Part shown: positions 19,095 through 23,320 of the stretch, piece by piece
Layout: each line of letters begins with the position of its first letter
How positions within the stretch are numbered: position 1 is the first letter of the stretch
Source: Octopus sinensis
Lineage: Eukaryota
Direction: 5' to 3'
Length of the DNA: 27,087 nt
Assembly: GCF_006345805.1 (NCBI RefSeq)
Contig: NW_021834032.1
Span: 1-27,087 of the forward strand
The notes under the pieces: generated by a model
What the model was told of the DNA's origin: nothing
The model's input: the letters and a program-made list of their open reading frames with translations, nothing else
Databases searched by the model: none
Made by a program: the position numbers and the translations under genes

Positions 19095-20119
19095 CCAACT
19101 AAAATGTTAGAGCGTCGGCAAAAATGCCTTGCGGTATTTTTCTGTCTTTACGTTCAGAGTTCAAATCCTGACGAGGGAAACCTTGCCTTTCATCGTTTCG
19201 GGGTCGATAAAACATAGTACCAATAAAGTATTTGGGTCAATGATGTGGACTAACTCCACCTCTCAAAAACTGCTTATCTTGTACCTGAATTAGAATCTAT
19301 TATTGAAGGTGTAGCTAAAGGTGGTTAACAAAATTAGCAAAGCAGAAGACATCAACCTCAGTGTTCAAATGGTACTTACTTTATCGACCCCGAAAGGACG
19401 GGCGGTCGACTTTACCTTTCATCTTTTTGGAGTCGATAAAATTAGTACCACTTGAGCAACACAATCGACTACTCACCACACCAGCAAAAATTCAGGTTTT
19501 GTGTCTATTGTAGAAAGAGGCATTTACTTAATGTTTCTTCTTTTACATTCTGAGTTCAAATCCCACCATCTTCAACTTTAGCTTTCAATCTCGTGACATC
19601 GATTAAATACTACCAGCCATATACTGTTGTTATTTAAATCAAACCGTATCCCTCTCTACATAACATGAAGCATTTTGCCTATGATAGAAATCATTGTCTG
19701 CATAGTTAAGGCGGCGAGCTGGCAGAATCGTTAGCACATCGGGTGAAATACTTCGCAGCATTTCGTCGTCGCTACGTTCTGAGTTCAAATTCCACCGAGA
19801 TCGACTTTGCCTTTCATCCTTTTGGGGTCGATTAAATAAGTACCAGTTACGCAGTGGAGTCGATGTAATCGACTTAATCCGTTTCTCTATCCTTGTTTGT
19901 CCCCTCTATGTTTAGCCCCTTGTGGGCAATAAAGAAATAAGAGTTGTCAGCACTTCGCAGCATTTCGTCTTCGCTACGTTCTGAGTTCAAATTCCGCCGA
20001 GGTCGACTTTGCTTTCCATCATTTCGGAGTCGATAAAGTACCAGTTGAGCAATGGGGTCGATATAATCGACTTGTCCCCTCCCCCAAAATTTCAGGCCTT
20101 GTGCCTGATGTAGAAAGGA
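19095..20119 (+). mobile_element. cluster of Nin/Deu SINE copies (19095-19296, 19405-19516, ~19535-19692, 19708-19939, 19952-20119; short minus-strand piece ~19350-19400)
   Basis: repeated GAGTTCAAAT and CTTTCATC..GTCGAT motifs; both tail types present. Confidence 0.85.
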
Positions 20120-21683
20120 TTATTATCTTCATAATTATTATTTCCTTCCTTATTGCTAACATAATCGTCGATAGTGTTTCTGTTGTTGCACAAGTCTCTC
20201 TCCTATTCCTCCTGTTTCTGTGGTTGCATTCGTTGATCTTGATAATTACTGTTGCAATTGTCGTTGCTATTGACACTGCTATCTCAGTAATTAGTCATAT
20301 TGTTGTTCTTGTTCATGACACTATAGTGGCTGTTGTAATTAATCACTATAGCTGCTGCTGCTGCTACTACTACTACTACAACTACTACTGCTGCTGCTGC
20401 TGATGATGATCGTAGTGGTGGCGATATTATTGATGCTGGGGTTGTTGTGCATTGCCGATATCCTTAAGCTATTGTTTGGATGTTCTTCTTCAAAGAACAA
20501 TAATCGCACATTCTCATTTCACAATAGATATTAATGGTTGAAGAAGGGAAAGGTGTAAAAAAGAATGTGTGAGGAGGAGGAGGAGGAGTGACTAAACAAC
20601 AGTTGAAGAGAGATAATATACGACAGAGGGAAGACAGAAAACATTGGAGAAAGTAGAAGAGAACGAAGACAAGGTGACAATAAGACTATTGATGAAAAAG
20701 AGGAAGTTGTTGGTTAACCCCGAGTCGATTGTGGGATTAAGCAGGCCGATGATTAAAAAGCGTTCCAGCCATGACAACTTGGACATGGTGTAACCTTAGT
20801 CGACACTATCTAATATATTTCTCATACAAGACGGTAGCGTGTAATATGGGAGAGCAAATATGTAGAAACACTCTCACTGAAGAAGAGGGAGGAGGAGAGA
20901 GACAGAAAGATATGAAGAAAAGGGTAAAATACAGAGAAAAGATAGAGTCGAAGGAAGATTGTAGAGGAGAAAAGAGAATAAGATAATGAAGAGAGAGAAA
21001 GAGAGAGGAGAGAGAGACGGTGAGTGTAAAATTAAAAGAGAATGAGAAAGAATAAAAAGAAGTGTAGAATGAAAATATCTTGAAAAAAACAAAAAAAAAT
21101 TGAATAAAACACGACAGCAAAAAAGAAGTACAATTGTGAGAGAAAAGTAATAAAGAGGGACCGAGTGCGAATAAAAGTTAAAGATTGTATATATATCCTC
21201 AGGCTGTGTACGTCATGTTGGTTCTCACTGCAATAAGAAAACATGATAAGGTGCTTCTCACTATTACAATGGCCACACTAAGTGTTCACTTTGTTCCGTA
21301 GCTAAACTGTTAGCGGATCTTCCACGCTATTGATAAGAACAGTGAAATAGCAACGAGCGAGATCGAAAGATAAGCTCACACTCTCGCATACTGTTTTTAA
21401 AATTTTAAATATCTCCGCCATCTTATTTTGTTATCGGTTTGCATTGTTTTTTCTTTTTCTCTTTTCCTTTCTTTCTGTTTTTAATTATTTATTTTTCTTT
21501 TTTTTTTTTTCAACTTTTGATAATAAATAATAAAAGGCAATGTTGCAGCTGACACGTTTTCACTTGTTTGTCTTTGATCGAAGTCACACCAATGACTCAG
21601 AGACACAGTTTCGAAGAGTCAAACGAACCTTTCATTCCATTTCGAATCCTCATCTCTCATCTACAAAACGTCAGATTTCGCTA

Positions 21684-21902: not shown

Positions 21903-22070
21903 TCAAAGCGACAAAAATATTTTGGCAAATTAAATTTAAATGTTGAAGTGAATCTAACGGTTTTTGTGTGTTTCTTAAATGGCTTATAAACACCTTCCAT
22001 TCTCCAATTGTTTTCGTTCCAGTACACGATCTCAGATCAGGTCACTTGCTATGCAAGTACATCTCCGTAA
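21903..22070 (+). mobile_element. Penelope-like element 3' terminal fragment (same family as 6642-6856)
   Basis: reverse complement of 6642-6790; 3' end runs into (TA)n. Confidence 0.75.
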
Positions 22071-22074
22071 ATAT

Positions 22075-22142
<68 letters not shown>

Positions 22143-22148
<6 letters not shown>

Positions 22149-22568
22149 AATAAATCTCTGAGCGAGGTATAAACAGTAACTGCTCGTAATATAAGCGGGA
22201 TCAGCCATCTGAATGTGGCTAGGGACAGGCGGGGTGGTGGGGGTGTACTGATGCATTTAGCCCCAGGCGACTATAGACGTCACTAGAAGAGCCGACACCA
22301 TCACGGTGTCCTTGCTAGCCTGTAAAGGGAGATCAGCCTCCCCGAAGATCGGATGCTACACACGAGAGGCGACTACCTCGAAACCGGTCCGTGTGTAGCA
22401 TCCGTATCTTCGGGGAGGCTGATCTCCCTTTACAGGCTAGCAAGGACACCGTGATGGTGTCGGCTCTTCTAGTGACGTCTATAGTCGCCTGGGGCTAAAT
22501 GCATCAGTAACACCCCCACCACCCCGCCCTGTCCCTAGCCACATTCAGATGGCTGATCCCGCTTATAT
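22143..22568. mobile_element. GC-rich fold-back PLE-type insertion in (TA)n with a truncated hammerhead in the loop
   Basis: arms 22189-22364 / 22390-22568 differ by three 1-nt indels; loop reads A-GAGG-CGACTA-CCTC-GAAA-CCGG-TC. Confidence 0.8.
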
Positions 22569-23107
22569 ATATATATATATATATATATACAAGCTAAATA
22601 TTGTAGCAATTTTACAACCAAAACCACGAAAAGACACTATTCTCATTGTTTGGTCGTCTCCAGAATTCCCCACTAAATTTAAATGACGCATTGCTTAACT
22701 GGTTTTCACAAAAGAAAACAATCAGTCACATTTGGTTTGCTTTTTCGTACTGAAGTGTTTGTTCGTATTACAATGTACTGCATGCATAGAAATTTTGTAA
22801 TTTCTTAAACTTTAGTAATTCCCCGCCATCATAAAAGAAAAAGCAGAATGATAATAATTCAGTACTCAGGTTATCCCATTATGTTAAGTAAGTCAAAAGA
22901 AATATCATAACTAACGATTGAAAAAAGAATAGTAGGAGGGCTAAAGAAGATTGTTATTGTAGTGTCATCTGGATTTGCACTGTTAAAAAATCATAATGAA
23001 TCAATCTGAAAAAATACATGTTGCTTTTTAAAATTCAAGCGGGGAGAAACGCTTTGGAACAAACACGTCCACGCAGTAAATTAAGGAAAAATAAGGAGAA
23101 AATTTTG

Positions 23108-23320
23108 ATTTCAAATTTTGGCACAAAGCCAGCAATTGCGAGGGAGGAGCTAAGTCATTTAAATCGGCCCTAATGCTCAACTGGTACTTATTTTATCGAA
23201 CCTGAAAGGATGAAAAGCAAAGTCGGCCCCGACGGCATTTGAATCCGGAACGTAAAGACAGACAAAATGTCGCAAAGCATTTTACCCTGCGTGCTAACGC
23301 TTCTACCAGCTCGTCGTCTT
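23108..23320 (-). mobile_element. Nin/Deu-domain SINE, tail type 2
   Basis: TTTCAAATTTTGGCACAAAGCCAGCAATT tail, GAAAGGATGAAAAGCAAAGTCG core. Confidence 0.87.

Follow-up and report, generated by a model that had tools for sequence, protein, structure and literature searches.

A head-to-head pair of truncated hammerhead repeats in a TA tract of Octopus sinensis, probably made by Penelope-like machinery from RNA read through the ribozyme

The window, that is the whole stretch of DNA analysed here, is an entire 27-kb unplaced contig (27,087 nucleotides) of the 2.72-Gb Octopus sinensis genome. It contains a fold-back in which the reverse complement of 22189-22364 aligns with 22390-22568 over 176 nt, with 0 substitutions and three 1-nt gaps, all of which fall in the left arm. 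Both arms derive from one repeat, whose unit we number from the first base past the predicted GUC cut (+1). The left arm (22189-22364, minus strand) covers unit +1 to +179, and the right arm (22390-22568, plus strand) covers unit +1 to +179 past the cut site and ends in the short 3' end class; both assignments rest on the arm alignment and the family mapping described below. A one-sided 3' extension, or 'tail', continues the left arm on the minus strand (22144-22188, unit ~+180 to +222/227, from the arm alignment and the family end classes), and with it the left arm overshoots the right arm 3' by ~43-47 nt (unit +222 to ~+227 versus +179). The arms enclose a 25-nt loop (22365-22389), and the DNA fold of the hairpin scores z = -42.8 against 100 shuffles. 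Alignment and fold score thus confirm the geometry originally predicted for the locus, that is arms of ~176 nt, a 25-nt loop and a one-sided extension of ~45 nt.

Both insertion ends adjoin (TA)n tracts. The left target flank is an (AT)n microsatellite of 36.5 copies (22071-22142), and the right one is (TA)13 (22564-22589), which overlaps the arm end via TA microhomology and thereby makes the target duplication unreadable. Next to the left tract lies a very high-copy repeat (21903-22067, judged by contig depth). Farther out in the flanking region, 20001-20136 and 23089-23228 form a diverged inverted pair (72-83%) of another interspersed repeat, which may resemble a cephalopod SINE.

As had been predicted, the loop corresponds to the 3' portion of a type I hammerhead. 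On the plus strand, the 5'-truncated ribozyme (22362-22389; intact in longer copies) runs from the ACGA of CUGACGA through stem II (GAGG, 22366-22369, and CCTC, 22376-22379), GAAA (22380-22383), the palindromic CCGG (22384-22387) and UC (22388-22389, TC in the DNA). This copy lacks CUG and the 5' strand of helix I. The trinucleotide ACG at 22362-22364 is shared by both sides of the junction: on the plus strand it belongs to the right-arm core (CUG-ACG-A), and on the minus strand it is unit +1 to +3 of the left arm. In line with this, the best family matches begin at window 22362, and the two arm segments have these 3 nt in common. Because ACG can be counted in the core, CUG alone is certainly lost, rather than the CUGAN that had been thought missing. 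The same microhomology places the true start of the left arm anywhere from +1 to +4, so that the claim that this arm begins right after the GUC cut holds for its maximal extent, which is exactly +1, and not for a fixed start.

The window element belongs to a dispersed, non-coding hammerhead repeat with a tandem unit of 360 nt, as seen in natural tandem copies, and is one among several hundred insertions with this head-to-head arrangement. We call this repeat family A. Two variants of one 19-mer have 143 and 96 exact matches in the genome, and mapping of the family upholds the view of the element as a retroposed repeat. In longer copies, the type I hammerhead is complete and consists of the helix I strand, CUGACGA, GAGG/CCUC, GAAA, CCGG and UC; the upstream motif that had been anticipated is present in them as CTGACGA, directly before GAGG..CCTCGAAACCGGTC. 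Manual annotation of family copies finds the core CUGANGA...GAAA...UH together with helices I-III, in agreement with the published core consensus (PMC7151607), and position 8 is a G in 85 of 111 hammerhead cores. Neither the window nor an intact family copy matched a hammerhead model in Rfam; the annotation is therefore manual, and cleavage is predicted. The longest ATG frame in a natural 751-nt two-unit stretch has 43 aa, which marks the unit as non-coding. On these sequence features, the window element belongs to the non-LTR retrozyme type.

A sister family, B, is ~80% identical to family A, has a unit of 362 nt and is represented by 450 exact matches of a 20-mer. The predicted RNA folds of both units lie below those of mononucleotide shuffles (-67.7 versus -46.9 +/- 3.8 kcal/mol for A, -64.6 versus -44.6 +/- 4.7 kcal/mol for B). 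Around the ribozyme, a predicted rod of ~130 nt extends helix I and is conserved in A and B despite ~20% divergence. Family-B cores read UUGAUGA or UUGACGA, with some UUGAUAA, in which the pair is compensated as U3-A8, and CCGACGA. Variants of helix III with a 6-nt palindrome also occur in family B (loci L246, L191-L220 and L227-L266). Two related core-pattern matches (L184:3930-3961 and L185:3941-3972) have the same helix III without a unit match and possibly represent a third family.

Within family A, 26 of the 111 cores, found in 19 insertions, read CUGACAA, that is G8 is changed to A and C3 is unchanged. These insertions are L033, L047, L065, L070, L072 and 14 others, multi-unit arms included. 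All but four of the CUGACAA cores (22/26) share one linked loop sequence that is absent from canonical cores, and several of the insertions hold two or three such cores. The linked loop and the recurrence within single insertions identify CUGACAA as a lineage passed on by inheritance and not as the product of CpG decay in scattered copies. C3 together with A8 is predicted to impair hammerhead cleavage. The anole ribozyme requires the C3-G8 pair for cleavage (Frangieh et al. 2024, PMC11167929), and natural hammerheads may carry the covariant U3-A8 in its place (Cervera and de la Pena 2014, PMC4209133); a partial literature search found no experimental test of the G8A effect. The CUGACAA lineage, with a core change that is predicted to impair cleavage, has nevertheless spread.

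We mapped insertions of both families. For family A, we followed 100 of the 143 matches of one 19-mer, together with others where different searches recovered them; 168 fetched loci reduced to 120 distinct insertions and, once two with identical architecture were removed, to 118 (for part of the counts, one further duplicate pair was removed). Family-A arms with standard 3' ends were kept (194), and those with non-standard 3' ends were excluded. For family B, the first 100 of 450 matches (contigs C1-C3) gave 70 loci and 57 insertions.

Simple head-to-head pairs account for 75 of the 118 family-A insertions and, among the first 100 of 450 matches, for 41 of the 57 mapped family-B insertions. 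In 67 of the 75 family-A pairs, the 3' ends fall at +175-183 on one arm and at +219-229 on the opposite arm, and a short arm likewise stands opposite a tailed one in 33 of the 41 family-B pairs from that same sample. The asymmetry thus recurs across the family, so the extension of one arm 45 nt further 3', to which the original prediction had drawn attention, is not specific to the window copy. Rather, the ~45-nt overhang is a family-wide rule and a general Penelope-like 'tail', not a mark of cleavage. A TA-rich repeat lies on at least one flank of 151 of the 175 mapped insertions, taken as a raw count. Arms longer than one unit are common to both families, with 62 in A (up to 1034 nt) and 30 in B (up to 1375 nt). 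This abundance of arms exceeding one unit indicates that the templates are uncleaved multimers or religated circles.

The 5' ends of the arms are scattered and fall off at a roughly constant ~0.4% per nt. The original prediction was that cleavage defines the end of the retrotransposed template, in which case 5' ends or inversion points should pile up at the cleavage site. Exact patterns applied genome-wide to both families, with the window copy included, give 3 stops at +1 in 354 passes against 1.3 expected (P=0.15; upper 95% bound, 2.5% of passes), and 2 in 353 when the window copy is left out (P=0.38). The remaining 351 of 354 related copies continue across the cut site without a break, where the pattern test scores any junction followed by a chance G as read-through. 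By family, 110 copies of A continue past +1, and the other three hits are explained by a substitution, a deletion and a chance 16-mer match; 236 copies of B continue, and the other five are three deletions and two true junctions. The mapped insertions agree: one of 119 family-A passes stops at +1, namely the window copy (0.46 expected), as does one of 69 family-B passes from the first 100 of 450 matches, and in the 3'-ascertained, and hence unbiased, family-A set none of 102 passes stops at the cut. The ribozyme is read through in >97% of passes.

The few junctions at the cut are themselves ambiguous. The two in family B have a maximal extent of +1 with microhomologies of 6 and 2 nt, and since all three +1 junctions show microhomology of 2-6 nt, none is fixed at +1. 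Family-B stops at most 5 nt from the cut number 6 against 2.5 expected (P=0.04, uncorrected, in one of 8 windows). Breakpoints are not concentrated at the cut, contrary to that expectation, and at most ~2.5% of passes stop at +1. Cleavage does not set the template end. Because 351 of 354 copies pass straight through, chance truncation is the most likely reason why the window arm starts at the predicted cut site.

Elsewhere in the unit, family-A 5' ends are enriched at +41..+60 (31 versus 12.2 expected, P=5e-6), in first and second laps alike. This interval lies at the 3' base of a predicted long helix (+40..+53), and the excess may reflect a stall of the reverse transcriptase at the modelled structure. 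The mapped insertions of family B do not repeat it (7 versus 6.5 expected); they show a weak excess at +21..+40 (11 versus 5.8 expected).

The joints between arms are rich in microhomology. At insert-free joints, at least 2 nt are shared in 28 of 56 cases in family A and 17 of 32 in family B, versus ~16% for random joins, so the ACG overlap at the window junction is typical. Opposite arms of one insertion disagree at few subfamily-diagnostic positions (19/998 in A, 8/949 in B), whereas different insertions disagree at 41% (A) and 38% (B). This concordance of 98-99% places both arms on one RNA or one source locus. Rare variants common to both arms (11/218 and 9/103) fit one RNA molecule or one source locus as well, and the likeness of successive laps is compatible with circular and linear templates alike. 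The template model of the original prediction thus survives in one half: the right arm does derive from a template in which the ribozyme was read through, whereas the view of the left arm as a cDNA of the self-cleaved RNA finds no counterpart in a pile-up at +1.

We consider it highly probable that the window insertion is a head-to-head pair of 5'-truncated 360-nt hammerhead repeats in (TA)n, made in trans by Penelope-like machinery from uncleaved or religated RNA, and that its start at the cut is due to chance. By analogy with the anole element (PMC11167929), a Penelope-like reverse transcriptase/endonuclease would likely act in trans on an uncleaved or re-ligated, multimeric or circular, hammerhead repeat RNA. 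The enzyme would nick both strands of AT-rich DNA, here the TA tract, cDNA synthesis would start at two internal sites (+179/181 and +223/228), and each cDNA would stop at random before the two truncated products are joined. In the window copy, ACG of the core would have annealed with CGT at +1..+3. The two end classes, the read-through and the microhomology are seen in the copies themselves; the identity of the enzyme and the order of the steps would come from the analogy. Some observations sit less comfortably with this account: the one autonomous family examined resembles the unit in its 3' end motif and has no significant similarity to it otherwise, the tail of ~45 nt exceeds the 30-40 bp given for Penelope-like elements (Craig et al. 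2021, PMC8557442), and stops at +1 and, in family B, near the cut lie slightly above expectation (3 versus 1.3, and 6 versus 2.5 at P=0.04 uncorrected).

These same small surpluses would be expected if, in the window copy, the reverse transcriptase had run off a self-cleaved RNA at +1 and its product had then been linked with another cDNA, one that broke off within the core. The maximal extent of the arm is exactly +1, and the two family-B junctions likewise reach +1 at most. We nevertheless regard such a run-off as quite unlikely, because the excess at +1 is not significant with or without the window copy, which was itself chosen for its coincidence, all three junctions carry microhomology, and the upper bound leaves room for ~2.5% of passes; moreover, both arms belong to one template lineage, and the partner arm reaches 27 nt into the ribozyme. 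If it were correct, a small minority of insertions would record cleavage. A possible, if doubtful, route is a snap-back, in which a cDNA extending to -27 in the core paired with its own complementary trinucleotide and so served as primer for the second arm; an endonuclease would afterwards have trimmed one arm at +179, so that the other arm keeps the tail. Enriched microhomology and concordant arms agree with such a snap-back, tail formation through endonuclease resolution has been suggested (PMC8557442), and in 22 of 66 family-A pairs, versus 7.5 when permuted, the 5' ends of the two arms, taken modulo the unit, lie at most 15 nt apart. That correlation is absent from the mapped insertions of family B (5/33 versus 3.4), however, many pairs have arm ends hundreds of nt apart, and plain snap-back would need additional trimming to make the second arm the one that reaches further 3'. 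Snap-back differs from our preferred account in how the arms are joined, and it likewise needs no cleavage.

A fold-back artefact of long reads or of the assembly is barely conceivable as the origin of the palindrome. In its favour are the nature of the window, a complete unplaced contig of 27 kb, and several 1-nt deletions in the left arm; yet the sequences flanking the two arms bear no relation to each other, and the arms end exactly where the two 3' end classes of the whole family lie, a match that would not be expected from a sequencing fold-back. The differing flanks and the recurrence of the asymmetry across the family make this origin unlikely.

For the preferred account, in which a Penelope-like enzyme copies the repeat in trans, we looked for an autonomous partner. 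Long open frames with reverse transcriptase and GIY-YIG-like parts are present in the genome. The high-copy Penelope-like family that we examined (L221:2667-5693 and L222-L226) has open frames of 835-1009 aa with a reverse transcriptase, a CxxC linker and a GIY-YIG-like motif, as well as terminal direct repeats and a minimal hammerhead-like motif. Its clade presumably resembles Neptune. Copies of this family end in TA tracts, and their 3' end motif resembles that of family A; at the examined loci, this motif was the only likeness to the unit, with no significant match. The chance 16-mer match, followed as a partner lead, gave a reverse transcriptase fragment without a Pfam hit. None of six further genome matches to the core pattern matches the unit, and the three of them that were scanned for long frames contained none.

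The insertion architecture of Penelope-like elements, the hammerhead and the retrozyme class are all already known, and the single window locus is an ordinary dead insertion. Had the original idea been true, it would have demonstrated that the template end is fixed by cleavage. The role of the hammerhead in Penelope-like elements has been termed unclear (PMC8557442), and in the anole element hammerhead mutants insert normally in vitro and AT-rich DNA is preferred (PMC11167929). The family count against a template end set by cleavage agrees with these in vitro data, and the natural core variants provide ready constructs for cleavage tests.

The ribozyme resembles dimer-dependent type I hammerheads of metazoans (PMC4209133) in its CUGANGA, its 4-bp stem II with G10.1-C11.1, GAAA, the 2-bp palindromic helix III and UC. 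It differs from these by a helix I extended into the predicted rod of ~130 nt and by lineages whose cores read CUGACAA in A and UUGAUGA, UUGAUAA or CCGACGA in B. The units resemble non-LTR retrozymes of metazoans (Cervera and de la Pena 2020, PMC7229834; Li, Clavereau and Pollet, bioRxiv 10.64898/2026.07.22.740005) as short non-coding tandem units with one type I hammerhead each, strong predicted self-pairing and a dispersal as monomers to short multimers, in a genome that also holds Penelope-like elements. Their lengths, 360 and 362 nt, fall within the retrozyme range of ~170-400 nt. The mussel repeats of that class have 350-390 bp. For the class, a figure legend gives a GC content <45% (PMC7229834), compared with 50% in A and 46% in B, a difference in a descriptive rather than mechanistic trait. 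Further differences from the described retrozymes are the short arrays, of at most ~4 units, and the predominance of inverted pairs with a tail, an arrangement that a term search did not find described in either source (PMC7229834; bioRxiv 10.64898/2026.07.22.740005).

It is this arrangement that the units have in common with endonuclease-bearing Penelope-like elements. The latter form an adjacent inverted 5'-truncated copy and a one-sided tail (PMC8557442), and the tail of the anole element spans the interval between two internal reverse transcription start sites, both DNA strands being cut and extended (PMC11167929). Insertions of the two families likewise show an inverted 5'-truncated copy, a one-sided tail, partial tandems and (TA)n targeting with a target duplication that cannot be read, and in them too the hammerhead does not mark where the template ends. 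Unlike Penelope-like elements, the unit has no ORF, its tail measures ~45 nt, and its homology to the one examined autonomous family is not significant. A partial literature search found neither an inversion-plus-tail footprint for retrozymes nor a genome-based tally of arms whose 5' ends fall at the cut. The preprint (bioRxiv 10.64898/2026.07.22.740005) argues by phylogeny that animal retrozymes derive from Penelope-like elements, and the Penelope footprint on retrozymes supports a link previously argued from co-occurrence and phylogeny. We lean, with some reserve, towards reading the Penelope-specific footprint of these two retrozyme families as direct genomic evidence that animal retrozymes use the Penelope enzyme; on this reading, the breakpoints and the spread of the CUGACAA lineage point to copying via intact or religated ribozyme sites, for which self-cleavage may be dispensable.
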